DNA from: a phage
Direction: 5' to 3' (one strand)
Sequence record: OZ418230.1
Length of the DNA stretch: 42,499 nt
The notes beneath the pieces are model-generated. The model worked only from the letters and a program-made list of their open reading frames with translations. It made no database searches and had not been told where the DNA came from. Both the position numbers and the translations under genes were made by a program. Position 1 is the stretch's first letter, and each line of letters starts with the position of its first letter. Of the stretch, positions 737 to 38,231 are shown in pieces.

Positions 737-4417
<3,681 letters not shown>

Positions 4418-15532: not shown

Positions 15533-18500
15533 ATGGGTAAAGGCAGCAGTAAGGGGCATACCCCGCGCGAAGCGAAGGACAACCTGAAGTCCACGCAGCT
15601 GCTGAGTGTGATCGATGCCATCAGCGAAGGGCCGGTTGAAGGTCCGGTGGATGGATTAAAAAGCGTGCTGCTGAACAGTACGCCGGTGCTGGACAGTGAG
15701 GGGAATACCAATATCTCCGGTGTCACGGTGGTGTTCCGGGCAGGTGAGCAGGAGCAGACTCCGCCGGAGGGGTTTGAATCCTCCGGCTCCGAGACGGTGC
15801 TGGGTACGGAAGTGAAATATGACATGCCGATCACCCGCACCATCACGTCGGCAAACATCGACCGTCTGCGCTTTACTTTCGGCGTGCAGGCACTGGTGGA
15901 AACTACCTCAAAGGGGGACAGGAATCCGTCGGAAGTCCGTCTGCTGGTTCAGATACAGCGTAATGGTGGCTGGGTGACGGAAAAAGACATCACCATTAAA
16001 GGCAAAACCACCTCGCAGTATCTGGCCTCGGTGGTGGTGGATAACCTGCCGCCGCGCCCGTTTAATATCCGGATGCGCAGGATGACGCCGGACAGCACCA
16101 CAGACCAGCTGCAGAACAAAACGCTCTGGTCGTCATACACCGAAATCATCGATGTGAAACAGGGCTACCCGAACACGGCACTGGTCGGCGTGCAGGTGGA
16201 CTCGGAACAGTTCGGCAGTCAGCAGGTGAGCCGTAATTATCATCTTCGCGGGCGCATTCTGCAGGTGCCGTCGAACTATAACCCGCAGACGCGGCAATAC
16301 AGCGGTATCTGGGACGGAACGTTAAAACCGGCATACAGCAACAACATGGCCTGGTGTCTGTGGGATATGCTGACCCATCCGCGCTACGGCATGGGAAAAC
16401 GTCTTGGTGCGGCGGATGTGGATAAATGGGCGCTGTATGTCATCGGCCAGTACTGCGACCAGTCGGTGCCGGACGGCTTTGGCGGCACGGAGCCGCGCAT
16501 TACCTGTAATGCGTACCTGACCACACAGCGCAAGGCGTGGGATGTGCTCAGTGATTTCTGCTCGGCGATGCGCTGTATGCCGGTATGGAACGGGCAGACG
16601 CTGACGTTCGTGCAGGACCGACCATCAGATAAGGTGTGGACCTATAACCGCAGTAATGTGGTGATGCCGGATGATGGCGCGCCGTTCCGCTACAGCTTCA
16701 GCGCCCTGAAGGACCGCCATAATGCCGTTGAGGTGAACTGGATTGACCCGGATAACGGCTGGGAGACGGCGACAGAGCTCGTGGAGGATACGCAGGCCAT
16801 TGCCCGTTACGGTCGTAATGTCACGAAGATGGATGCCTTTGGCTGTACCAGTCGGGGGCAGGCACACCGCGCCGGGCTGTGGCTGATTAAAACGGAACTG
16901 CTGGAAACGCAGACCGTGGATTTCAGCGTCGGCGCAGAAGGGCTTCGCCATGTACCGGGCGATGTTATTGAAATCTGTGATGATGACTATGCCGGTATCA
17001 GCACCGGTGGTCGTGTGCTGGCGGTGAACAGCCAGACCCGGACGCTGACGCTCGACCGTGAAATCACGCTGCCATCCTCCGGTACCACGCTGATAAGCCT
17101 GGTTGACGGAAGTGGCAATCCGGTCAGCGTGGAGGTTCAGTCCGTCACCGACGGCGTGAAGGTAAAAGTGAGCCGTGTTCCTGACGGTGTTGCTGAATAC
17201 AGCGTATGGGGGCTGAAGCTGCCGACGCTGCGCCAGCGCCTGTTCCGCTGTGTGAGTATCCGGGAGAACGATGACGGTACGTATGCCATCACCGCCGTGC
17301 AGCATGTACCGGAAAAAGAAGCCATCGTGGATAACGGGGCGCACTTTGACGGCGACCAGAGCGGCACGGTGAATGGTGTCACGCCGCCAGCGGTGCAGCA
17401 CCTGACCGCCGAAGTCACCACAGACAGCGGGGAATATCAGGTGCTGGCGCGATGGGACACGCCGAAGGTGGTGAAGGGCGTGAGCTTCCTGCTTCGCCTT
17501 ACCGTGGCAGCGGACGACGGCAGTGAGCGGCTGGTCAGCATGGCCCGGACGACGGAAACCACATACCGCTTCAGGCAACTGGCGCTGGGGAACTACAGGC
17601 TGACAGTCCGGGCGGTAAATGCGTGGGGGCAGCAGGGCGATCCGGCATCGGTATCGTTCCGGATTGCCGCACCGGCAGCGCCGTCGCAGATTGAGCTGAC
17701 ACCGGGGTATTTTCAGATAACCGCCACGCCCCATCTTGCCGTTTATGATCCGACGGTACAGTTTGAGTTCTGGTTCTCGGAAAAGCGGATTGCGGATATC
17801 AGGCAGGTTGAAACCACAGCCCGCTATCTTGGCACGGCGCTGTACTGGATAGCTGCCAGTATCAATATCAAACCGGGCCATGATTATTATTTTTACATCC
17901 GCAGTGTGAACACCGTTGGCAAATCGGCATTTGTGGAGGCTGTTGGCCAGCCGAGTGATGATGCATCCGGCTATCTGGATTTTTTCAAAGGCGAGATAGG
18001 GAAAAGCCATCTGGCTCAGGAGCTGTGGACGCAGATTGATAACGGTCAGCTTGCGCCTGACCTGGCTGAAATCAGGACGTCCATTACGGATGTCAGCAAT
18101 GAAATCACGCAGACCGTCAATAAGAAACTGGAAGACCAGAGTGCGGCAATTCAGCAGATACAGAAGGTTCAGGTTGATACAAATAATAACCTGAACAGCA
18201 TGTGGGCTGTGAAGCTGCAGCAGATGCAGGACGGACGCCTTTATATCGCGGGTATTGGTGCCGGTATTGAGAACACCCCTGACGGCATGCAGAGTCAGGT
18301 GCTGCTGGCGGCGGACAGGATTGCGATGATTAATCCTGCGAATGGCAATACAAAGCCGATGTTTGTTGGGCAGGGCGATCAGATATTCATGAACGAAGTG
18401 TTCCTGAAATATCTGACGGCTCCCACCATTACCAGCGGTGGCAATCCCCCAACGTTTTCACTGACACCTGATGGTCGACTTTCTGCGAGAAATGCGGATA

Positions 18501-19015
18501 TCAGCGGTAACGTGAATGCGAACTCCGGGACGCTCAATAATGTCACGATTAACCAGAACTGTCGGATTCTGGGAAAACTGTCAGCTAACCAGATTGAAGG
18601 TGATATTGTCAAAACGGTGGGAAAAGCCTTTCCGAGAAATGGCAGTTATGCCAGCGGTACAATAACGGTCACTGTGTACGATGACCAGGCTTTTGACCGT
18701 CAGATAGTCGTCCCCCCCGTTCTGTTTCGCGGTGGTAAGCATGAAAACTTCAACAGCAACAACCAACAGTCATACTGGTATTCAACCTGTAAGCTGCAGG
18801 TGCTGAAGAACGGACAGGAAATCTTTCAGCAACCCGCGACGGATGTCAGCAGGGTATTTTCATCAGTCATTGATATGCCTGCCGGACACGGCCATGTCAC
18901 CCTGACTTTCAATGTTTCTTCATATGGTGCAAATAACTGGACGCCAACGACCAGTATCAGCGACCTTCTTGTTGTCGTGATGAAGAAATCAACAGCCGGC
19001 ATCAGTATCAGTTGA
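15533..19015 (+). CDS. J: central tail fibre / host-specificity protein J
   Basis: 1160 aa; lambda J-like over most of the length, C-terminal ~150 aa divergent (lambda J is 1132 aa). Confidence 0.92.
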
Positions 19016-19034
19016 ATTTTAAAACCCAAATTCG

Positions 19035-19058
19035 GGCACCAGAAATGGTGCCTTTTTT
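19035..19058 (+). terminator. rho-independent terminator after J
   Basis: Hairpin ggcacc-agaaat-ggtgcc followed by TTTTTT. Confidence 0.6.
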
Positions 19059-19073
19059 ATTTGTGGAGTGAAT

Positions 19074-21095
19074 ATGGCAGTACAGATTTCAGGTGTGCTG
19101 AAAGACGGTGCAGGAAAACCGATACAGAACTGCACCATTCAGCTCAAAGCAAAACGTAACAGCACCACAGTTGTGGTGAACACGGTGGCCTCAGAAAATC
19201 CGGATGAAGCCGGACGTTACAGCATGGATGTTGAGTATGGCCAGTACAGCGTCGCCCTGCTGGTTGAAGGTTTTCCGCCTTCACATGCCGGGACCATCAC
19301 CGTGTATGAGGATTCTAAGCCGGGGACATTGAATGATTTTCTGGGCGCTGCAACAGAAGATGATGTTTGTCCGGAGGCACTGTATCGTTTTGAAAAGATG
19401 GTGGAAGAGGCGGCACGCAACGCTGAAGCCGCCTCTCAGAGCGCAGCGGCAGCAAAGAAATCAGAAACAGCAGCGGCATCGTCCAGGAACGCGGCGAAAA
19501 CATCAGAGACGAATGCAGGTAACAGCGCGAAAGCGGCAGCTTCTTCAAAAACAGCCGCACAAAACGCAGCAACAGCGGCAGAACGTTCAGAGACAAATGC
19601 CCGTGCGTCAGAAGAAGCCTCCGCAGACAGTGAAGAGGCTTCCCGCCGTAATGCAGAGTCAGCCGCTGAAAATGCCGGAGTCGCCACCACAAAAGCGCGG
19701 GAGGCCGCAGCAGACGCAACAAAGGCCGGGCAGAAAAAGGATGAGGCTCTGTCGGCAGCGACACGAGCTGAAAAGGCGGCAGACCGCGCAGAAGCCGCAG
19801 CGGAAGTGACTGCAGAGCCCTGTGCGAATATAGTGCCGCCGCTGCCTGATGTGTGGATACCGTTTAACGATTCACTGGATATGATTACGGGTTTTTCGCC
19901 ATCTTATAAAAAGATAGTTATTGGTGACGATGAAATAACAATGCCAGGCGACAAGATTGTTAAGTTTAAACGTGCTTCAACAGCAACGTATATTAATAAG
20001 TCCGGCCAACTCAAGCTTGCTGAAGTTGACGAACCGCGATTTGAGCGCGATGGCTTATTGATTGAAGGACAGAGGACAAATTATCTGAGGAACTCAAATA
20101 AACCAGACTCATGGACTGTTCATTCCGCACTGAATAAAACATTTGGCACTGATAAACAGGGGTTCAATTATGCCACGGTGACACCCACGGAAAGTATAGT
20201 GGGAACAACAGGTGGCTATACTGTGCATGGTGTGGTTGCAGCAGACAGATTCCCGCTGGCAAGTGGTGAATGTTTCACTTTTTCGTGCCGGGTTAAAGGC
20301 GCTAAAGCACGATGCAGGTTAAGAGTTTCAGTTATTATTGGTGGAACAGATACCTTCTCTGCTGACTCTTATCTTGATCTGGATACCCGGATCGCAACAG
20401 TAAGCGGTAATACATCCCTTATAACAGCCAAAGCTGAACAACAGGGCGAGTGGACCTACTATGAGGCCACTTATACAGCTAATACGGACATTGATACCGT
20501 TAACTGTGCTTTTTATATGACAAATAAAATAAGTAATGAGCCATTCTATGATGACTCAACATTAACCATGACGACGCCGCAAATTGAACTGGGCAATACG
20601 GCATCGTCATTTATTGTAACTACAATGCCAACAACACGCGCAAGTGATGTAGTTACTATCCCATCGCAGAATAACCTGTCAACACGGCCTTTTACGGTAT
20701 TGTGCGAAGTAAGCAGGAACTGGAGTACACCGCCCAATGTTGCGCCAAGGATATTTGATGTTGGAGGGCACAGTATTGATGATAATTATTTATCGCTGGG
20801 GTTTGTTGCAACAGGAAAGATAAGCGCCAACGTAGGAATGGTTCAGCCACAAATTGCCTCAGATGGAGAAAGGTTCATTGTGGGTGTGAGAGCTAAATCT
20901 GATTTATCAGTAAATGCAATATGCAATGGTAATTATACAACAAACCTTAATGGTAAAATATTTGGAGTTACAGCAACATCGTACCGGTTTGGTGGGCAGA
21001 CCGCAGCAGGAACGCGTCATTTGTTTGGACACATCAGAAATTTCAGAGTCTGGTTTAAAGAATTAAATGACAGGCAAATCAAGGAGGCAGTATGA
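19074..21095 (+). CDS. stf: side tail fibre protein, mosaic (lambda Stf-like N-terminus, Ala-rich repeat region, divergent distal domain)
   Basis: N-terminal ~110 aa match lambda orf-401/Stf (MAVQISGVLKDGAGKPIQNCTIQLKA...); central A/S/E-rich repeats with recurring SETNA motifs; C-terminal ~420 aa not lambda-like and lower GC. Confidence 0.8.
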   Translation: MAVQISGVLKDGAGKPIQNCTIQLKAKRNSTTVVVNTVASENPDEAGRYSMDVEYGQYSVALLVEGFPPSHAGTITVYEDSKPGTLNDFLGAATEDDVCPEALYRFEKMVEEAARNAEAASQSAAAAKKSETAAASSRNAAKTSETNAGNSAKAAASSKTAAQNAATAAERSETNARASEEASADSEEASRRNAESAAENAGVATTKAREAAADATKAGQKKDEALSAATRAEKAADRAEAAAEVTAEPCANIVPPLPDVWIPFNDSLDMITGFSPSYKKIVIGDDEITMPGDKIVKFKRASTATYINKSGQLKLAEVDEPRFERDGLLIEGQRTNYLRNSNKPDSWTVHSALNKTFGTDKQGFNYATVTPTESIVGTTGGYTVHGVVAADRFPLASGECFTFSCRVKGAKARCRLRVSVIIGGTDTFSADSYLDLDTRIATVSGNTSLITAKAEQQGEWTYYEATYTANTDIDTVNCAFYMTNKISNEPFYDDSTLTMTTPQIELGNTASSFIVTTMPTTRASDVVTIPSQNNLSTRPFTVLCEVSRNWSTPPNVAPRIFDVGGHSIDDNYLSLGFVATGKISANVGMVQPQIASDGERFIVGVRAKSDLSVNAICNGNYTTNLNGKIFGVTATSYRFGGQTAAGTRHLFGHIRNFRVWFKELNDRQIKEAV

Positions 21096-21370
21096 AAGAT
21101 TTAACTTTGAAATTTCCTGGTAACAGAGAGTTTAAATCCTTCCTGTCATCTCTTGACTGGGAGGAGGATGAAGACCTCCAGAATAAACTGTTAGTCGATG
21201 AAATTGGTTTCACCTACACAGAAACAGGGGTAACAGAAGAGGGAGAACCTGTCTGTGTCCGGAATGACGGTTATTTTGTCAACATTCGCATTCTTGATGA
21301 CTTGTTTGATGTTTCTGTATTCTCTGATTATGTCGTGGAGCTGGAAACACCGCTTCGGGAATGGAGCTGA
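21092..21370 (+). CDS. small acidic hypothetical protein (possible tail fibre chaperone)
   Basis: 92-aa ORF with ATGA overlap on stf stop; no family recognised. Confidence 0.45.
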   Translation: MKDLTLKFPGNREFKSFLSSLDWEEDEDLQNKLLVDEIGFTYTETGVTEEGEPVCVRNDGYFVNIRILDDLFDVSVFSDYVVELETPLREWS

Positions 21371-21382
21371 AAGGAGGAAATA

Positions 21383-21610
21383 ATGGATATAAGCCCCTTA
21401 CTTCATGCACTTTGTGCTGTGGCTGCGCAGATACTGGTTGGTCTTTTTACCGGAAACTGGGCTTACGGAGCGATAGCCGGTTGTACGTTCTTCATTGCGC
21501 GTGAACATACCCAGGCAGAATATCGCTGGATTGAAATGTTCGGGCATGGCAAGCGAATGAATATGCCGTGGTGGGGCGGTTTTGATGTTACGCCATATGG
21601 GCTGGACTGA
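21383..21610 (+). CDS. hypothetical small hydrophobic protein
   Basis: 75-aa ORF with hydrophobic N-terminus; its last codons run into the icd-homologous segment in a different frame, so could be fortuitous. Confidence 0.3.
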
Positions 21611-21749
21611 AGCCGCAGACCTGATTGTTAAAGGTATGGAAGGCGCAATCAACGCCAAGACTGTAACCTATGACTTCGAACGTCTGATGGAAGGCGCTAA
21701 ATTGCTGAAATGTAGCGAGTTTGGCGACGCGATCATCAAGAACATGTAA
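21585..21749 (+). other. attP-associated substitute 3' end of host icd (isocitrate dehydrogenase)
   Basis: Open frame translating [54 protein letters not shown], near-identical to the E. coli Icd C-terminus; phages 21 and e14 integrate in icd. Confidence 0.8.
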
Positions 21750-21772
21750 TCACTACATGTGTTAAATATTTA

Positions 21773-21800
21773 AACGGGCGTGTTATACGCCCGTTGTTTT
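21773..21800 (+). terminator. rho-independent terminator following the icd 3' segment
   Basis: Stem aacgggcg/cgcccgtt with 7-nt loop followed by gtttt. Confidence 0.65.
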
Positions 21801-21815
21801 ATGATGATGTAAAAT

Positions 21816-21852
21816 CTTCCCCAAAACTTTCCCCAAAACCCTTCCCCAAAAC
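21816..21852. repeat. three tandem 12-13 bp direct repeats (c/t)ttccccaaaac; candidate integrase arm-type sites
   Basis: cttccccaaaac / tttccccaaaac / ccttccccaaaac in direct succession between the icd segment and the int 3' end. Confidence 0.6.
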
Positions 21853-21862
21853 TGGCTATTTT

Positions 21863-23005
21863 CTATGCTGTTTTGATATCTACGATAACCCAGTCTTTAC
21901 CACGATCATCATTGTATCGGTCGGTCATTTTTCTGGATTTATGGCCTAACAACTTTTGCGTATCCAGACCCTGTTCCCGATATAACCGTTCTGACAGAGA
22001 TCGCTGCTCATGAAATGTGGGCGCAGTTCCTTGCTCCCATTTTATGCCACATTTTTCCCTGGCCTTTTTAAAAGCCGTTGTCAGAGTATTTGCAGAAACC
22101 TGGTCTCCTCTGTTTGCTTGAGAGGTAGTGTGACGGTAATGGACCAGATATTTACTAACAACAGCATCCCTGCACTGAGATATAACTTCACGAAGGGTAA
22201 TATTCAGAGCATCGCATTTCAGGTTAAGCGGAATAGCAAGTTTTGAACCGGTTTTTTCCTGAGTAATGTGCAACATGTCGTCCCAGATATCAGAGAATTT
22301 CAAATTGCAGATATCACCTAAACGTTGTCCAGTAACAAGAGCAAGTAGCATGCCGCATTTTAAATAGGGCTGCCGTCTGCTTACGCTTTCAAATATTGCC
22401 TGCCATTCGGGCAGTGACAATCTTTGGCGGTTTACTCGATTTCGCGGTTGTTTTGTTGCCTGCGCTGGGTTAAATCCTGGCGGAACATGTCCTGCGTGTT
22501 GTGCTTCTTTGAAGACGTCGATCAACACCATTCTCACGACTTGCGCCATCCTGTTATGACCTTCAGCCTTTACAGCATCAATTATTTCGGCAATATCAAG
22601 TGCGGTAATATCCTTGAGGTGTTGCATTCCACAATGCTCACGGAAAAGACGAATGGGTTTGCCTTTTTGCCGATAGGAGTTGGGTCTTAGTTCATTATGT
22701 TGCAGCCTGTCCTCCTGGATAGAAATATATTTATCAAGCCATTCTGTCACCGTAATTTCTGAGCGCCTGCCTTTCATTCTTTCCAGACGCTCATTGACGC
22801 TTAATATTTGTCGGGTACGTTGTTCAGCAATAATGGTATTTGCTTCAGTAGCAACTTGTTTTGCTTCATTCTCATCAGTTCCTAAGCTATGAAAACGACC
22901 GGATAGTGGATGTTTGTATTGCCAATATACCTTTCCGGTTCGCTTATCTAATTTGCAATATAAATTGGGTATAGAGATTTTGTGAGATCGGGGTCTAGCA
23001 GCCAT
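21863..23005 (-). CDS. int: tyrosine integrase, phage 21/e14 (icd-targeting) type
   Basis: 380 aa with tyrosine-recombinase C-terminal region (…HEQRSLSERLYREQGLDTQKLLGHKS…); resembles e14 IntE from memory; adjacent to attP. Confidence 0.9.
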   Translation of the reverse strand: MAARPRSHKISIPNLYCKLDKRTGKVYWQYKHPLSGRFHSLGTDENEAKQVATEANTIIAEQRTRQILSVNERLERMKGRRSEITVTEWLDKYISIQEDRLQHNELRPNSYRQKGKPIRLFREHCGMQHLKDITALDIAEIIDAVKAEGHNRMAQVVRMVLIDVFKEAQHAGHVPPGFNPAQATKQPRNRVNRQRLSLPEWQAIFESVSRRQPYLKCGMLLALVTGQRLGDICNLKFSDIWDDMLHITQEKTGSKLAIPLNLKCDALNITLREVISQCRDAVVSKYLVHYRHTTSQANRGDQVSANTLTTAFKKAREKCGIKWEQGTAPTFHEQRSLSERLYREQGLDTQKLLGHKSRKMTDRYNDDRGKDWVIVDIKTA

Positions 23006-23231
23006 CAGCGATTATCCGTTGGAGTTTTGGGTTTGCGTTTATTGGGAGTTGCGGTTCTGCAAGCGTTCCTACAAAACGGGAATTTCGGTCAATCATCCAG
23101 TAGCGACCAACTTTTATAGCGGGTGGGGCCATCATTTTCCCTTGCGCGTATTTTTTCAGAACTCGCTCACTTGGTGCTAAGTCCCCAAATTCTTCTTTAG
23201 CCCAGTCCTGTAAAGTGATTAGTCGAGACAT
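22995..23231 (-). CDS. xis: excisionase
   Basis: 78-aa ORF overlapping int start by 11 bp, position typical of xis. Confidence 0.75.
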   Translation of the reverse strand: MSRLITLQDWAKEEFGDLAPSERVLKKYAQGKMMAPPAIKVGRYWMIDRNSRFVGTLAEPQLPINANPKLQRIIADGC

Positions 23232-23370
23232 TTGTCCTCCTCTTAGCTGCTGAGGGAGTTTGTGACCGATATATCTGACATGATATTAAGCTCATGGCAG
23301 GTACATCTCTTGACTGGTCATAGAGATAAATTTAATGCTGAGAAATGCAGTATTGAATTTATCAATTTTT

Positions 23371-23610
23371 CTATTTCCTGCGTATGGCACGTAACTTCTT
23401 AATGTGTTCTGCCGTTTCGATCTCTTCTGCTATCCGATCTGCATCAGCTTTATTCACAGGTTCAAAGTCATGATTAAAGCGGAACATGCTGGCGATACAT
23501 GTTCTGCCTTTTCGGATGTAGTGAACTTTGTTGTAGGTAGAACGCAGGATTTTGCAGGGAGTGCCGTGGTGGTCGACGTACCAGGTGTTAGGAAAAATGA
23601 TTCTGAGCAT
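23371..23610 (-). CDS. hypothetical protein
   Basis: 79-aa ORF in the distal pL operon; no family recognised. Confidence 0.4.
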   Translation of the reverse strand: MLRIIFPNTWYVDHHGTPCKILRSTYNKVHYIRKGRTCIASMFRFNHDFEPVNKADADRIAEEIETAEHIKKLRAIRRK

Positions 23611-23657
23611 TTTTACACCTCAGTTGGACGATGTTGAAATTTGCTGCTTTGAGGCCA

Positions 23658-23876
23658 TCACAATCCCCATTGTTTGTTCTTAAGTTCGATCTCCTCCTGG
23701 CAACTTGCACAAGTCCGACAACCCTGAACGACCAGGCGTCTTCGCTCATCTATCGGATCGCCACACTCACAACAATGAGTGGCAGATACAGTCTGGTAGT
23801 TCAGACGACGCATTTTTATTGCTGTATTGCGCTGTAATTCTTCGATTTCTGATGCTGAATCAATGATGTCTGCCAT
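23658..23876 (-). CDS. TraR/DksA-family C4 zinc-finger protein
   Basis: 72 aa with CxxC…CxxC (CCECGDPIDERRRLVVQGCRTCASCQ) typical of the TraR/DksA zinc ribbon. Confidence 0.6.
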   Translation of the reverse strand: MADIIDSASEIEELQRNTAIKMRRLNYQTVSATHCCECGDPIDERRRLVVQGCRTCASCQEEIELKNKQWGL

Positions 23877-23974
23877 CTTCCATTAATCCCTGAATTGTTG
23901 GTTAATACGCTTGAGGGTGAATGCGAATAATAAAAAAGGAGCCTGTAGCTCCCTGATGATTTTGCTTTTCATGT

Positions 23975-24274
23975 TCATCGCTCCTTAAAGACGCCGTTTA
24001 ACATGCCGATCGCCAGGCTTAAATGAGTCGGTGTGAATCCCATCAGCGTTACCGTTTCGCGGTGCTTCTTCAGTACGCTACGGCAAATGTCATCGACGTT
24101 TTTATCCGGAAACTGCTGTCTGGCTTTTTTGATTTCAGAGTTAGCTTGACGGGCAATGCTGCGAAGGGCGTTTTTCTGCTGAGGTGTCACTGAACAAGCC
24201 CCATGCCGGAAAGCATAAGCACACAGAATATGAAGCCCGCCGCCAGAAAAATGCATTCTGTTGTTGTCATGCAA
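23975..24274 (-). CDS. hypothetical protein
   Basis: 99-aa ORF, start uncertain (internal Met possible). Confidence 0.45.
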   Translation of the reverse strand: MHDNNRMHFSGGGLHILCAYAFRHGACSVTPQQKNALRSIARQANSEIKKARQQFPDKNVDDICRSVLKKHRETVTLMGFTPTHLSLAIGMLNGVFKER

Positions 24275-24458
24275 GCTCTCTCTCGTTTGCCTCTGCTTTC
24301 GCCGCCATCATTTCCAGCTTTTGTGAAAGGGATGCGGCTAACGTATGAAATTCTTCGTCTGTTTCTGCTGGTATTGGCACAAACCTGACTCCAATTTGAG
24401 CAAGGCTATGTGCCATCTCAATGCTCGTTCTTAACTCAACAGGAGATGCTTTGTGCAT
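24267..24458 (-). CDS. lambda Orf63-like small protein
   Basis: 63 aa ([23 protein letters not shown]…), matches my recollection of lambda orf63 and its position upstream of orf60a/exo. Confidence 0.6.
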   Translation of the reverse strand: MHKASPVELRTSIEMAHSLAQIGVRFVPIPAETDEEFHTLAASLSQKLEMMAAKAEANERELA

Positions 24459-24619
24459 ACAGCCCCTCGTTTATTATTTATCTCCTCAGCCAGCCGCTGG
24501 GCTTTCAGTGGATTTTGGATAACAGAAAGGCCGGGAAATACCCAGCCTCGCTTTGTAACGGAGTAGACGAAAGTGATCGCGCCTACCCGGATATTATCGT
24601 GAGGATGCGTCATCGCCAT
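24431..24619 (-). CDS. lambda Orf60a-like small protein
   Basis: 62-aa ORF overlapping the 3' end of exo as lambda orf60a does. Confidence 0.55.
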
Positions 24620-25290
24620 TGCTCCCCAAATACAAAACCAATTTCAGCCAGTGCCTCGTCCATTTTTTCGATGAACTCCGGCACCATCTCGTCAAAACTC
24701 GCCATGTACTTTTCATCCCGCTCAACCACGACATAATGCAGTCCTTCACGCTTCATACGCGGGTCATAGTTGGCAAAGTACCAGGCATCTTTTCGTGTCA
24801 CCCACATGCTGTACTGCACCTGGGCCATGTAAGCCGACTTTATGGCCTCGAAACCACCGAGCCGGAACTTCATGAAATCCCGGGAGGTAAACGGGCATTT
24901 CAGCTCAAGGCCATTGCCGTCACTGCATAAACCATCGGGAGAGCAGGCGGTGCGCATACTTTCGTCGCGATAGATGATCGGGGATTCAGTAACATTCACG
25001 CCGGAAGTGAATTCAAACAGAGTTCTGGCGTCGTTCTCGTACTGTTTTCCCCAGGCCAGCGCCTTAGCATTAACTTCCGGAGCCACACCGGTGCAAACCT
25101 CAGCCAGCAGGGTGTGGAAGTAGGACATTTTCATGTCAGGCCACTTCTTTCCTGAGCGGGGCTTTGCTATCACGTTGTGAACTTGTGAAGCGGTGATGAC
25201 GCCGAGCCGTAATTTGTGCCACGCATCATCTCCCTGCTCGATAGCTCTCACGTCGATCCCGGTACGCTGCAGGATAATGTCCGGTGTCAT
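24610..25290 (-). CDS. exo: lambda exonuclease (Red-alpha)
   Basis: 226 aa, near-identical to lambda Exo. Confidence 0.95.
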
Positions 25291-26072
25291 GCTGCCACCT
25301 TCTGTTCAGTGGCTTTTTGTTTCAGGAATCCAAGAGCTTTCACTGCTTCGTCCTGTGTCAGTTCTGACGATGCACGAATGTCGCGGCGAAATATCTGGGA
25401 ACAGAGCGGCAATAAGTCGTCATCCCATGTTTTATCCAGGGCGATCAGCAGAGTGTTAATCTCCTGCATGGTTTCATCGTTAACCGGAGTGATGTCGCGT
25501 TCCGGCTGACGTTCTGCAGTGTATGCGGTATTTTCGACAATGCGCTCGGCTTCATCCTTGTCATAGATACCAGCAAATCCGAAGGCGAGACGGGCACACT
25601 GAATCATGGCTTTATGCCGTAACATCCGTTTGGGATGCGACTGCCACGGCCCCGTGATTTCTCTGCCTTCGCGAGTTTTGAATGGTTCGCGGCGGCATTC
25701 ATCCATCCATTCGGTAACGCAGATCGGATGATTACGGTCCTTGCGGTAAATCCGGCATGTACAGGATTCATTGTCCTGCTCAAAGTCCATGCCATCAAAC
25801 TGCTGGTTTTCATTGATGATGCGGGACCAGCCATCAACGCCCACCACCGGAACGATGCCGTTCTGCTTATCAGGGAAGGCGTAAATTTCTTTCGTCCACG
25901 GATTAAGGCCGTACTGGTTGGCGACGATCAACAATGCGATGAACTGCGCATCGCTGGCATCACCTTTAAATGCCGTCTGGCGAAGAGTGGTGATCAGTTC
26001 CTGTGGGTCGACAGAATCCATGCCGACACGTTCAGCCAGCTTCCCTGCCAGCGTTGCGAGTGCTGTACTCAT
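25287..26072 (-). CDS. bet: Red-beta single-strand annealing protein
   Basis: 261 aa, lambda Bet. Confidence 0.95.
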
Positions 26073-26077
26073 CCGTT

Positions 26078-26494
26078 TTATACCTCTGAATCAATATCAA
26101 CCTGGTGGTGAGCAATGGTTTCAACCATGTACCGGATGTGTTCTGCCATGCGCTCCTGAAACTCAACATCGTCATCAAACGCACGGGTAATGGCTTTTTT
26201 GCTGGCCCCGTGGCGTTGCAAATGATCGATGCATAGCGATTCAAACAGGTGCTGGGGCAGGCCTTTTTCCATGTCGTCTGCCAGTTCTGCCTCTTTCTCT
26301 TCACGGGCGATCTGCTGGTAGTGACGCGCCCAGCTCTGAGCCTCAAGACGATCCTGAATGTAATAAGCGTTCATGGCTGAACTCCTGAAATAGCTGTGAA
26401 AATATCGCCCGCGAAATGCCGGGCTGATTAGGAAAACAGGAAAGGGGGTTAGTGAATGCTTTTGCTTGATCTCAGTTTCAGTATTAATATCCAT
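26078..26494 (-). CDS. gam: Gam, RecBCD inhibitor
   Basis: 138 aa, lambda Gam (long form). Confidence 0.95.
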
Positions 26495-26592
26495 TTTTTA
26501 TAAGCGTCGACGGCCTCACGAAACATCTTTTCATCGCCAATAAAAGTGGCGATAGTGAATTTAGTCTGGATAGCCATAAGTGTTTGATCCAT
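26449..26592 (-). CDS. kil: Kil (host cell-division inhibitor)
   Basis: 47-aa product [47 protein letters not shown] as lambda Kil; the track ORF 26449..26718 is an upstream extension. Confidence 0.8.
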
Positions 26593-26725
26593 TTTTTGGG
26601 ACTCCTGGCTGATTAAGTATGTCGATAAGGCGTTTCCATCCGTCACGTAATTTACGGGTGATTCGTTCAAGTAAAGATTCGGAAGGGCAGCCAGCAACAG
26701 GCCACCCTGCAATGGCATATTGCAT
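26561..26725 (-). CDS. cIII: CIII (FtsH inhibitor stabilising CII)
   Basis: Manual translation gives the 54-aa [54 protein letters not shown], lambda CIII; below the track length cutoff. Confidence 0.8.
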   Translation of the reverse strand: MQYAIAGWPVAGCPSESLLERITRKLRDGWKRLIDILNQPGVPKNGSNTYGYPD

Positions 26726-26797
26726 GGTGTGCTCCTTATTTATACATAACGAAAAACGCCTCGAGTGAAGCGTTATTGGTATGCGGTAACGCCGCGC

Positions 26798-27166
26798 TCA
26801 GGCGGCTTTGATAGTCATATCATCTGAATCAAATATTCCTGATGTATCGATATCGGTAATTCTTATTCCTTCGCTACCATCCATTGGAGGCCATCCTTCC
26901 TGACCATTTCCATCATTCCAGTCGAACTCACACACAACACCATATGCATTTAAGTCGCTTGAAATTGCTATAAGCAGAGCATGTTGCGCCAGCATGATTA
27001 ATACAGCATTTAATACAGAGCCGTGTTTATTGAGTCGGTATTCAGAGTCTGACCAGAAATTATTAATCTGGTGAAGTTTTTCCTCTGTCATTACGTCATG
27101 GTCGATTTCAATTTCTATTGATGCTTTCCAGTCGTAATCAATGATGTATTTTTTGATGTTTGACAT
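26798..27166 (-). CDS. ea10: Ea10 protein
   Basis: 122 aa matching lambda Ea10. Confidence 0.9.
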   Translation of the reverse strand: MSNIKKYIIDYDWKASIEIEIDHDVMTEEKLHQINNFWSDSEYRLNKHGSVLNAVLIMLAQHALLIAISSDLNAYGVVCEFDWNDGNGQEGWPPMDGSEGIRITDIDTSGIFDSDDMTIKAA

Positions 27167-27426
27167 CTATTCATATCCTCACAGATAAAAAATCGCCCTC
27201 ACATTGGAGGGCAAAGAAGATTTCCAATAATCAGAACAAGTCGGCTCCTGTTTAGTTACGAGCGACATTGCTCAGTGTATTCACTCGTTGGAATGAATAC
27301 ACAGTGCAGTGTTTATTAGTATGCCTGTCTTTTAACCACATCAGGCTCGGTGGTTCTCGTGTACCCCTACAGCGAGAAATCGGATAAACTCTATTCACCC
27401 CTACAGAGAGCAAAAGAGAAACGCCG

Positions 27427-28008
27427 ATGAACAACTCATGGTGGCAGGAACTAATGCATTTTTTCCTGCAAGGAATGACACTTAAACAGTTGATTCATAT
27501 GCTAATCATCCTGATCATATTGATTATTGTTATGCCTGTAAGCGTAAAAGAATGGATAAACCTGCATAATCCAGAAATCCTTCCTCATTACTGGATGTAT
27601 TACATCCTGTTGTTTTGCGTTAGCTATGTGCTTAACGGCGTTGTTAATTCCGCTTATCACGCTGTGACTGTAAGAATTGAGATATTCGCTGCTCAGAAGC
27701 GCAAATCTAAAGAAGAGAAATACGTGCAAGATTTGTTTGATTCGTTAACTCTTGGAGAAAGAGCGTATTTGGCATTCGCTGTAGCCGCTAATAACCAGCT
27801 AAAGACAGAAAAGGGAAGCCCTGAAGCAATCTCATTGCTCGAAAAAGGGCTTCTTATTCGGGTACCTTCTGCTACTGGATATCCTGAAATCGACCGTTTT
27901 GTTATCCCGGAACGCTATAGAAATGAGTGCTACATTAGGTTTGCTGGGAAGAAAGACAGTCTTATGGATGAACTTATCGCTCAGGATAAGCATGGCAAAA
28001 ACAAGTAA
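27427..28008 (+). CDS. superinfection exclusion protein B-like membrane protein
   Basis: 193 aa, N-terminal TM helices, rightward within the leftward operon next to N; lambda sieB promoter-like sequence (cccctacagcgagaaatcggataaac) upstream; protein diverges from lambda SieB. Confidence 0.6.
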   Translation: MNNSWWQELMHFFLQGMTLKQLIHMLIILIILIIVMPVSVKEWINLHNPEILPHYWMYYILLFCVSYVLNGVVNSAYHAVTVRIEIFAAQKRKSKEEKYVQDLFDSLTLGERAYLAFAVAANNQLKTEKGSPEAISLLEKGLLIRVPSATGYPEIDRFVIPERYRNECYIRFAGKKDSLMDELIAQDKHGKNK

Positions 28009-28024
28009 TTAGCAAATGAATTTA

Positions 28025-28333
28025 TCATCTCGCCGTCAGTTGTTTTGATTTCCGGTAGCCTGCCGCGTAAATAGCTACGTTTGGCAGGCAAACACTTCCA
28101 CTGCATTCATCTACTTTCTTGCAGCGAAGGCTTCCGAGTGATATTGCTTTTTCAGAAAGGCTTAACCGCTTTCTCGGGTCTTCCTGAACAGGTTCCTCAC
28201 TGTCTGTGCCGAAGATCGAATCGATGATGTTGCAGATGGAATCACGCTCGATGGCCAGCTTTCTGCGCCGCTCATGACGGCGAGTTTTGGCATTTCCTGC
28301 AAATGTTGATTTTCCGTACACGATTACCGTCAT
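28025..28333 (-). CDS. N: N-like transcription antiterminator
   Basis: Arg-rich motif (AKTRRHERRRKLAIER) near the N-terminus if started at MTVIVYG (28333); first gene after nutL; alternative start 28417. Not lambda N. Confidence 0.6.
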   Translation of the reverse strand: MTVIVYGKSTFAGNAKTRRHERRRKLAIERDSICNIIDSIFGTDSEEPVQEDPRKRLSLSEKAISLGSLRCKKVDECSGSVCLPNVAIYAAGYRKSKQLTAR

Positions 28334-28450
28334 GATGTTTTCCTCATGTGAAATGGCTTTGGTGGTGATGCGCCAGATGCTGATCTTCTGGTTGCTGTCG
28401 TTACTGCTGCAATTCACATCACCCCAAACCCATCTCGTTTGGTATCTGTT

Positions 28451-28486
28451 CGCGCTTTGTCAGCGCATCATCGAAGTTAAAGAGCC
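28451..28486 (-). promoter_or_regulatory. nutL candidate (boxA-like ggctctttaa plus boxB hairpin gcgc-tgacaaa-gcgc on the minus strand)
   Basis: Same boxA/boxB arrangement and GACAA loop as the nutR candidate after cro. Confidence 0.5.
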
Positions 28487-28740
28487 TGCCAATCTGTTCC
28501 GTTTGGCTGCCAGCGTCCTGCTGATGGCGATTATAATGAACCAATAGTTCGATATTATCAAGAACTATAAGTACGAATTGTTTGTGGTTCATTAACTTAA
28601 TGAGATATGTTTTTGATATGTAAAGGAATTTATTTTTGTAAAGATTGAAGATTGGTCAGTAGGAGAGAAAGAATTGTTTGCTGGCGTGTTAGTTCGTGGG
28701 TTAGCACATGTGCGGATGTTAAATAAGGTAGACGATCGTG

Positions 28741-28770
28741 AGGAAAAGAAAAACCGGCGCTGAGGCCGGG
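28741..28770 (-). terminator. rho-independent terminator ending the cI-side (immunity) transcript
   Basis: On the minus strand, hairpin cccggc-ctcagc-gccggg followed by tttttcttttcc, 5 nt after the stop of the 28776..29675 gene. Confidence 0.6.
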
Positions 28771-28775
28771 TATAA

Positions 28776-29675
28776 TTATTTGATTATTTCTTTTATAAAG
28801 ACTTCTTTCGGTTGGTATTTTTTATCTGATGATTTGAGCTGGTACGTTATTGTTATATCAGCACGTACAGAAAATTTACCTGCAAAATCTGATGGGTTTA
28901 CGTTGGGGCCAAGAACCATATTTACTCTTCGATCTATTAATCCAGGGATAACAGCAGCCCAACCTTTCTCTGGATTGTCGAGGTCTAATGCACGGATTTC
29001 AACATCAACATCAAAATGATCCTGAGTATATGACTCTGGTGTGAAGACAACTTCAGTTGGGGCTTTTTTAATGGTTTCAGCGGGAATGGTCACTGTACCA
29101 CCCCCTGTACCTATGACCATCGTAGATCCTTCGTCTGCCCTAGCTGGGGCAAGCGTCTTAATGGAACTTTTGGCAAGAGTCTTCTTATTGGTTACCGTGC
29201 TTTCTATGATTGCTTGAAGACGGTCAGGTGAAATATTAGCCTCACCGGCACCAATATTGATGATTGTATTGTTATTTGCTTCAAAGTGGGAGGTGTTGCT
29301 TGGAGCCATAGCCTTAGTTGCTAGAACTAAGCCATATCCAACCAGACCAATAACAACAGCACCAACGAGAGCGTTTCTCATTTTCCCATTTCCGATCTTT
29401 GCATGAGCGCCAGCAAGAAACTTGTCCATTTCTTCTTGGCTACCAAAGAGGAGTTTAATAACAATATCTTCATAAAGGCTTCCTGCTTCTAATCGCGCAA
29501 CATGCACCGATATATCAAGGATATTAGCCCCTGTCAGTTCCTGCAAAACACCTTCTGATTGTTTTGCGATGGCCTCCCACCCTTGAAGGGAGGTAATCAC
29601 ATCTTTGATGCTTACAGGTTCTTTAGTTGAATAATATATGTTTTCGGTAAAGGTTAAAGATAATTCTTGGGACAT
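28776..29675 (-). CDS. uncharacterised membrane-anchored protein in the rexAB position
   Basis: 299-aa ORF downstream of cI on the same strand, gagg SD, one predicted TM helix (MRNALVGAVVIGLVGYGLVLATKA), low GC; no family recognised. Confidence 0.7.
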   Translation of the reverse strand: MSQELSLTFTENIYYSTKEPVSIKDVITSLQGWEAIAKQSEGVLQELTGANILDISVHVARLEAGSLYEDIVIKLLFGSQEEMDKFLAGAHAKIGNGKMRNALVGAVVIGLVGYGLVLATKAMAPSNTSHFEANNNTIINIGAGEANISPDRLQAIIESTVTNKKTLAKSSIKTLAPARADEGSTMVIGTGGGTVTIPAETIKKAPTEVVFTPESYTQDHFDVDVEIRALDLDNPEKGWAAVIPGLIDRRVNMVLGPNVNPSDFAGKFSVRADITITYQLKSSDKKYQPKEVFIKEIIK

Positions 29676-36900: not shown

Positions 36901-36911
36901 TGGATTTGCCC

Positions 36912-37817
36912 CTATATTTCCAGACACCTGTTATCACTTAACCCATCACTGGCCCACTGCCGCAGATATTCCCGTGGCGAGCGATAACCCAGCGCACTAT
37001 GCGGATGCCATTCGTTATAATGCTCGAACGCCTCTGCAAGGTTCTTTGCTGCCGTTAACCCGTCTGGTTTGGGCATGATACTGATGTAGTCACGCTTTAT
37101 CGTTTTCACGAAGCTCTCTGCTATTCCGTTACTCTCCGGACTCCGCACTGCCGTGTTCTTCGGTTCAAGTCCCAACATCCTGGCGAACTGACGTGTTTCA
37201 TTCGCCCGGTAGCATGAACCATTATCCGTCAGCCACTCCACTGGAGACGCCGGAAGCTCGCTGCCAAAGCGGCGTTCCACTGCTCCCAGCATGACGTCCT
37301 GTACTGTTTCACTGTCGAAGCCACCCGTTGTGACCGCCCAGTGCAGTGCCTCACGGTCACAGCAGTCCAGCGCGAACGTGACCCGCAGTTTTTCTCCGTT
37401 ATCACAGCGGAACTCAAACCCGTCAGAGCACCATCGCTGATTACTTTCTTTCACAGCCACTCTGCCGGTATGTGCCCGTTTCGATGGCGGTACAGCGGGT
37501 TTTCGCTCAAGCAACAGCGCATTCTGGCGCATGATCCGGTAAACACGTTTGGCATTGATCGCAGGCATACCATCAAGTTCTGTTTGTCTGCGAAGCAGCG
37601 CCCATACCCGACGATAACCATATGTGGGTAGCTCTCCGATAACATGGTGTATACGGCGAAGCACATCCGTATCATCCGTGTGACGGCTGCGGCGGCCGTC
37701 CTTCCAGTCATCGGCTCGTCTGAGAATGACGTGCAACTGCGCACGCGACACCCGGAGACAACGGCTGACGAAGCTTACTCCCCATCCCCGGGCAATAAGG
37801 GCGCGTGCGCTATCCAC
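36912..37817 (-). CDS. insD: IS2 transposase OrfB (InsD)
   Basis: 301 aa, matches IS2 InsD. Confidence 0.9.
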
Positions 37818-38140
37818 TTTTTTGCTCGCCCATATTCAACGGCTTCTTTAAGGAGTTCATTTTCCATCGTTTTTTTGCCGAGCAGACGCTGGAGTTCTTT
37901 AATCTGCTTCATGGCGGCAGCAAGTTCAGAGGCAGGAACGACCTGTTCTCCGGCAGCCACAGCAGTAAGACTTCCCTCCTGGTATTGCTTACGCCAGAGA
38001 AATAGCTGGCTGGCTGCCACACCATGTTGCCGGGCAACAAGGGAGACCGTCATTCCCGGTTCAAAGCTCTGCTGAACGATAGCGATCTTTTCCTGTGTAG
38101 TACGCCGTCTGCGTTTCTCCGGCCCTAAGACATCAATCAT
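37775..38140 (-). CDS. insC: IS2 OrfA (InsC)
   Basis: 121 aa from [40 protein letters not shown]…; overlaps insD (frameshift window). Confidence 0.9.
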
Positions 38141-38231
38141 CTGTTCTCCAATGACTAGTCTAAAAACTAGTATTAAGACTATCACTTAAATAAGTGATAT
38201 TGGTTGTCTGGAGATTCAGGGGGCCAGTCTA

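Follow-up and report, generated by a model that had tools for sequence, protein, structure and literature searches.

The attachment site in icd that phage 21 and e14 share is a textbook example of a phage mending the gene that it interrupts. Phage 21 was isolated in the 1950s, and its int-xis-icd′ region is known from the work of the Campbell laboratory. Wang et al. 1997 are said to have delimited the minimal attP of phage 21 to 366–418 bp, with the outermost dodecamers included, and to have found that the specificity of the e14 integrase differs from that of the phage 21 type. The title of GenBank record M61865 (1991) names the icd pseudogene, xis and int, and record OL657228 annotates, in this order, an icd pseudogene, a terminator, an attP with three subsites (P1P2P3, consensus YYTTCCCCAAAA), a tyrosine integrase, and an excisionase. 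The identity block of the icd site is long because attP brings in replacement sequence, and the target gene thereby stays functional (PMC10111431). Integrases of the lambda type are heterobivalent, and their intasome needs arm sites to the left and to the right of the core (PMC9791396).

The window, by which we mean the whole stretch of DNA analysed (42,499 nucleotides), is a complete cos-to-cos phage genome of 42.5 kb with a lambda-type cos sequence at its left end. Positions 21591–23300 are 98.7% identical to both phage 21 records (M61865 and OL657228) and 100% identical to eleven records of the 1H12/Lambda_2E9 family, and the gene order is that annotated in OL657228. The window shares with phage 21 the terminator, the three P′ dodecamers and the position of the core, and the icd′ segment of phage 21 encodes the same 53 residues as that of the window, with 8 nt differing. 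The two sites differ in the predicted overlap, TGCTGCG in phage 21 and TGTTACG in the window, and the window has lost the P arm together with the C half-site and the 5.5-kb b region. Judged by sequence identity and gene order, what the window carries is the P′ half, proximal to int, of a phage 21-type attP (Table 1). This type of site is already known and annotated in GenBank, and recognizing it here adds no new knowledge; the truncated copy was previously unrecorded. We assign a probability of roughly 0.62 to the combined reading that the window carries a truncated phage 21-type attP, that the truncation arose by an Int-promoted deletion, and that the phage is defective in integration, as predicted from the structure of the site.

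Table 1. Features of the truncated attachment region, in coordinates of the window
Feature	Position	Strand	Remarks
Truncated homologue of 1H12 gp25 / phage 21 CPT_21_24	21383–21610	+	Left breakpoint inside gene
Deletion junction	21586–21587		GGTTTTGAT/GTTACGCC; 1H12 21575 joined to 27125; 5,549 bp lost; 1 bp (T) shared
Predicted 7-bp overlap (strand exchange), TGTTACG	21586–21592	+	Left edge of attP/attB/attL/attR identity
Predicted right core-type Int site C′, CCATATG	21593–21599	+	Dyad symmetry with TATATAC of intact relatives
Phage-borne replacement icd 3′ end	21588–21749	+	53 codons and stop; Pfam match; annotated icd pseudogene in phage 21
icd-type intrinsic terminator	21773–21802	+	Hairpin 21773–21795, then GTTTTAT; right end of host-homologous block
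Three tandem P′ arm-type repeats, (C/T)TTCCCCAAAAC	21816–21852	+	Starts at 21816, 21828 and 21841; P1P2P3 in phage 21
int	21863–23005	−	Heterobivalent tyrosine integrase, 380 aa; Arm-DNA-bind_1 1.7e-28, Phage_integrase 1.1e-23 (Pfam)
xis	22995–23231	−	Excisionase, 78 aa; Pfam Exc 6.7e-6; annotated excisionase in relatives

The integrase and its putative arm sites agree with an earlier note made from the sequence alone, which had described a phage 21/e14-type integrase with three tandem repeats abutting the 3′ end of its gene. The int region has 98.7% DNA identity with phage 21, and the protein contains a lambda-type arm-binding domain. The dodecamer YTTCCCCAAAAC occurs in three exact copies, the last of which lies 10 bp from the int stop codon, and has no further exact copy in the 42.5-kb window; looser matches with two mismatches occur elsewhere in the window at chance level (9 found, 7.6 expected). 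The three copies are kept in all relatives compared. They are predicted to bind Int, as the note had proposed, a prediction consistent with the P1P2P3 annotation of phage 21 and the arm-binding domain.

The icd fragment translates as LRHMGW...AIIKNM-stop and matches the C-terminus of Pfam Iso_dh, the isocitrate/isopropylmalate dehydrogenase family (E = 1.5e-6). Compared with K-12 icd, 21 of 162 nt and 2 amino acids are changed, and the fragment is identical to the int-adjacent icd 3′ end of the lysogen 118UI. The fragment had been read as 165 bp encoding the last 54 residues of isocitrate dehydrogenase, which holds for 53 codons and the stop but not for the 54th. Specifically, the ATG at 21585–21587 is a product of the deletion junction, with AT from gp25 and G from attP, and is CTG in the intact relatives. 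Together with the bases before it, this ATG reproduces the host sequence TGATG by chance, and the megablast match to attL begins at 21583 because the junction bases mimic that sequence; the phage-derived icd segment proper begins at 21586.

The hairpin terminator reported after the fragment is present and is a homologue of a host terminator. Of its 10 pairs, 6 are G-C. It has a fold energy of −17.7 kcal/mol (z = −2.8), scores as an intrinsic terminator and is homologous to the K-12 terminator downstream of icdC. The block of host homology ends with it and spans about 217 bp (21586–21802). An Rfam scan of 21200–22100 gave no match above threshold. A prophage sRNA at the locus, svsR or a C0293-like RNA, was considered and set aside as irrelevant, since svsR maps to cI.

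To place the core, we aligned seven sequences: the window, the attP sites of 1H12 and phage 21, and the attL and attR junctions of both 118UI and the K-12 prophage e14. All seven agree from TG(C/T)T(G/A)CGCCA onward, and to the left of this block they are unrelated, reading TATATAC in the phages, GAGATGA in the host and TAACTAA next to e14. The identity of the window with both attL and attR of 118UI begins at T21586. In the intact attP, TATATAC and CCATATG are ATAT-containing inverted half-sites placed symmetrically about the seven bases between them. By analogy with lambda, we infer a site composed of TATATAC (C), TGTTACG (overlap) and CCATATG (C′), in which the 7-bp length and the cleavage positions follow the lambda model. 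The predicted core thus falls within the interval 21585–21749 where it had been sought, at the extreme left end (21586–21599). TGTTACG is found in the window and the 1H12 family and TGCTGCG in phage 21, e14 and K-12; both encode Leu-Arg, and the differences are synonymous in icd.

The cryptic prophage e14, which separates icd and icdC in K-12, has its attB at the same place in icd and likewise brings a replacement 3′ end, whereas its arm and icd′ sequences differ from those of the window. The e14-adjacent icd and the displaced icdC first differ at a C/T position 11 bp into the block, and because attL and attR first differ only this far to the right of the left identity edge, the e14 crossover is confined to (A)TGCTGCGCCA. 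The earlier note had expected an alignment with icd to mark the core by a block of identity. Such an alignment gives a 10-bp block with two mismatches (TGTTACGCCA in the window versus TGCTGCGCCA), but no long identity block with K-12-type icd. The lysogen 118UI carries TGTTACG at both junctions and gives no crossover mapping for the TTA-type overlap.

The nearest relative of the window is phage 1H12 (NC_049947; 1H12/Lambda_2E9 family, genus Jouyvirus), with which it is collinear end to end except for the loss of 5,549 bp and an insertion of 1,331 bp at 36901–38231. The left (structural) arm, positions 1–21586, is 98.35% identical to 1H12 with 337 mismatches, whereas the segment from attP to the right end, 21586–42499, is 99.97% identical. 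This difference between the arms identifies the window as a mosaic relative of 1H12 and not a direct laboratory derivative. Identity with the 1H12/Lambda_2E9 family is 100% over 21586–23300 and over 20500–21586, whereas 1H12 positions 21576–27124 are gone from the window and the inserted element is extra in it. This element is an IS2 (1,331 bp) flanked by a 5-bp target duplication, located in a YbgA-like gene (1H12 gp66), and is identified by the terminal inverted repeat TAGACTGGCCCCCTGAATCTCC and by matches to the NCBIfam models 'IS2 transposase TnpB' (6e-210) and 'IS2 repressor TnpA' (4e-83). An IS4 is present in the sister phage Lambda_4B5.

The deletion is delimited to the base. Window positions 1–21586 align to 1H12 1–21575, and the window from 21586 onward aligns to 1H12 from 27125; phage 21 and over 20 further phages give the same two-segment pattern. 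Across the junction the window reads GGTTTTGAT/GTTACGCCATATGG, and in 1H12 the left breakpoint reads GGTTTTGAT/CCGCGAG and the right breakpoint TATATACT/GTTACGCC. The truncated gp25 keeps 68 of 97 codons, followed by 7 out-of-frame codons that run into the icd fragment; the intact gene encodes a 97-aa putative membrane protein, and its last 29 codons lie in the deleted DNA. Besides this end of gp25, the missing 5,549 bp contain sitDCBA, three small ORFs and the entire left (P) arm of attP.

Two further features of this part of the genomes may be recorded. A complete sitABCD operon, encoding an iron/manganese transporter, lies in the b region at 21757–25206 of 1H12 and at 968–4417 of the stretch of phage 21 examined. 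In the window, a weak terminator-like hairpin (GCCGTGGTGGGGCGGT, then TTTGATG) is located at 21565–21580, inside gp25 just left of the junction, and may be irrelevant.

Phage 21 has the same gene order as 1H12 across the region missing from the window. In addition, the P arm runs directly into the core in phage 21 and in 25 of 25 phage records whose coverage of a 1H12 probe (P arm, core and icd′ fragment) reaches at least 80%. We therefore regard the window, on these comparisons, as the derived, deleted form.

What has been lost amounts to the left half of the site. In 1H12, phage 21, 4A7 and ev207, a fourth dodecamer, CTTTCCCCAAAAT, lies 130–140 bp left of the core in the same orientation as the three int-side dodecamers, and in the intact relatives a perfect IHF consensus, AATCAAACGGTTG, lies between it and the core. 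From one outer dodecamer to the other, the site of phage 21 measures 398 bp, which fits the minimal attP of 366–418 bp that has reportedly been defined; 267 bp (21586–21852) are left in the window. The sequence left of 21586 is the truncated phage gene, unrelated to the P arm, and the 400 bp left of the junction contain no dodecamer with two or fewer mismatches. The earlier note had tacitly taken attP to be complete and working, which does not hold, as the P arm, the IHF-consensus site and the TATATAC half-site are all deleted. The position of the deleted C half-site is now occupied by GTTTTGA, which shares the overlap-proximal TGA with the host B half-site GAGATGA, and residual core binding at this sequence is possible.

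In the intact relatives, the site runs from the P arm through TATATAC/TG(C/T)T(G/A)CG/CCATATG, 160 bp of icd 3′ coding sequence, the terminator and the three P′ dodecamers to int. Strand exchange by Int would take place where the icd homology begins on the left. The lysogen of such a phage keeps a complete icd, with the last 53 codons and the terminator supplied by the phage, and the displaced host icd 3′ end becomes a pseudogene at the far junction. The site of the window, left with the overlap, C′ and P′ only, is the counterpart of the delta-P′ att of lambda b2. By analogy with lambda, and with the limits that Wang et al. 1997 reportedly set for phage 21, we predict that the window attP is unable to form an integrative intasome and that integration by the Int route is defective. 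The phage would grow lytically with int and xis intact and would form stable lysogens only rarely, for example by RecA recombination over the ~217-bp icd homology. In the window this stretch of host homology lies between the core and the P′ arm and would offer a RecA route of integration, a route that lambda b2 does not have. The presence of int, xis, an icd fragment and arm repeats would ordinarily prompt the call 'temperate, integrates at icd'; half of attP is gone, and the phage probably does not integrate.

Prophages related to the window do use icd. Among the best 30 complete E. coli genome matches, icd adjoins this int in all 30, and a synthetic attR probe detects the attR-type junction (P-arm/icd′) in 1,464 of 5,426 complete E. 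coli genomes, about a quarter. In 118UI, a full-length icd ends in exactly the sequence of the window and is followed by int and xis; about 50 kb from this int-side junction, the other phage arm abuts an icd fragment annotated as incomplete. The proposal that integration leaves an icd pseudo-3′ end at the far junction is thus borne out for the relatives, by 118UI and the attR-type junctions, and is doubtful for the phage in the window. Similarly, a search of host genomes for this prophage at icd finds the relatives there, but the window junction itself is found in 0 of the 5,426 complete E. coli genomes, nor does it occur in the viral, genome or metagenome contig collections searched. The absence of the junction from all of these collections is consistent with an integration defect, weakly so.

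The displaced host icd 3′ ends at attR, in 118UI and as icdC in K-12, are themselves phage-21-like: the 118UI copy differs from the fragment of the window by 3 nt and the icdC copy by 17 nt, compared with 21 nt for the e14-borne copy. Because attR of 118UI carries TGTTACG together with a phage-21-like icd′, the attB of this strain had evidently been converted earlier. These sequences suggest that phages of the phage 21/1H12 group have repeatedly converted host icd 3′ ends in the past.

Three explanations would make the truncation either harmless or unreal, and we consider each improbable. The site might be a complete, functional attP of the phage 21/e14 type, for which three repeats and an icd fragment suffice; the overlap, C′, icd end, terminator, P′ repeats, int and xis are indeed intact and identical to those of prophages residing in icd. 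This is quite unlikely, as the P arm missing here is kept in phage 21, 1H12, 4A7, ev207 and the 1,464 attR-type junctions of E. coli, no E. coli genome searched contains the window junction, and lambda-type integrases require arm sites to either side of their core (PMC9791396). Less likely still, by a little, is that the junction is an assembly or chimera artefact and that the real phage has a full b region and an intact attP. The junction is in no other record searched, and the window is an assembled sequence; however, the breakpoints share no repeat able to mislead an assembler, the cos-to-cos length of 42.5 kb is packageable (phage 21 has 42.9 kb), and the clean IS2 insertion with its 5-bp target duplication suggests a real, propagated clone. 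The least credible of the three makes the short arrangement ancestral and the 5.5 kb an insertion gained by the other phages, a view to which the cargo-like nature of sitABCD lends something. It is hard to reconcile with a left breakpoint that cuts a conserved 97-aa ORF at codon 68, or with the conserved P arm in the missing DNA, which is found in phage 21 and every related phage record examined.

How the deletion arose is a separate matter, and the structural conclusion that attP is truncated is independent of the mechanism. Deletions of the b region, which is dispensable DNA, are readily selected in lambdoid phages, and ordinary illegitimate recombination without Int, with the right endpoint at the core edge by chance, is the strongest competitor of an Int-promoted event, though clearly the less probable of the two. 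The shared sequence at the junction, T (1 bp) if the partner of gp25 was attP or TGAT (4 bp) if it was attL, is typical of illegitimate joins, and the left breakpoint has no significant core-like sequence. Against such an origin stands the right endpoint: the att identity block opens with T21586, which coincides with the predicted boundary between C and the overlap. For a random endpoint in 6–10 kb of dispensable DNA, the chance of falling within 2–4 bp of this boundary is ~3e-4 to 7e-4 (about 1 in 3,500 to 1 in 1,500), a coincidence noticed post hoc. Int-promoted deletions of lambda that end at att were reportedly described by Parkinson and Huskey and by Davis and Parkinson in 1971. The position of the right endpoint at the att edge, together with this lambda precedent, leads us to favour an Int-promoted origin.

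In an Int-promoted event, gp25 would contain a secondary site without homology to the core, and strand exchange by Int between this site and the core would have given the 5,549-bp b-region deletion. The core would have been that of attP in a phage genome existing freely, or that of attL in a lysogen undergoing excision. The gp25 breakpoint, aligned in register with the core, matches at 8 of 21 positions (attB) or 6 of 21 (attP), and 13–14% of phage positions match attB as well as this. Because the match of the gp25 site is at chance level, the sequence gives no independent support for the involvement of Int. A gapped resemblance of gp25 to att (TGAT..CNGCG..TGGGATG) was discarded as out of register by 2 bp, and an IS2-mediated deletion was discarded as well, the IS2 being 15 kb away. 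Lambda b2 and the lambda att deletions resemble the window in that dispensable b-region DNA is lost up to the att crossover, and the P arm with it, while P′, int and xis are kept; the integrase and the core differ.

Taken further, an Int-promoted origin would make T21586 a frozen footprint of strand exchange, with top-strand exchange at TATATAC/TG, and would mean that icd-integrating phages shed sitABCD and the ability to lysogenise in one Int step and so give rise to obligately lytic or abortively lysogenic variants among natural or laboratory virions. We hold this extended proposal to be evenly balanced between right and wrong. If the deletion was Int-promoted, the junction would provide a marker, at base resolution, for the exchange point of a phage 21-type integrase, and would document a natural event of the lambda b2 type in another lambdoid lineage, in which the host-benefit cargo sitABCD was lost in the same step.

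A core-like sequence occurs elsewhere in the relative. The sequence AAGAGGATGCTGCGCTATATG at 26072–26092 of 1H12, inside the hypothetical gene gp31, agrees in direct orientation with the host attB core GAGATGATGCTGCGCCACATG at 17 of 21 positions. Apart from attP itself, nothing in the genome matches better (~0.01 such matches expected by chance). The sequence lies roughly 1 kb to the left of attP and is deleted in the window.

Variant arrangements at icd were also seen in other genomes. In phage D2 (OM475427, about 1250–1375), the P-arm dodecamer (CTTTCCCCA) is followed by ~125 bp of host icd coding sequence in place of phage sequence. This stretch leads into GAGATGA/TGCTGCG, so that the icd homology extends leftwards and the C half-site is of the host type. 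The D2 attP variant may be chimeric, since its record covers only part of a genome, was taken from lysogens and includes Ns. The lysogen Rb-23 contains a composite icd prophage of more than 50 kb with an embedded satellite, and its attL lies beyond the 50-kb stretch examined. At 17588–29339 of that stretch, an island of ~11 kb splits the major capsid gene of the icd prophage and carries an integrase, a primase, capsid genes of its own and a TIR-domain protein. The island looks like the helper-embedded PICI arrangement described in PMC10111431.
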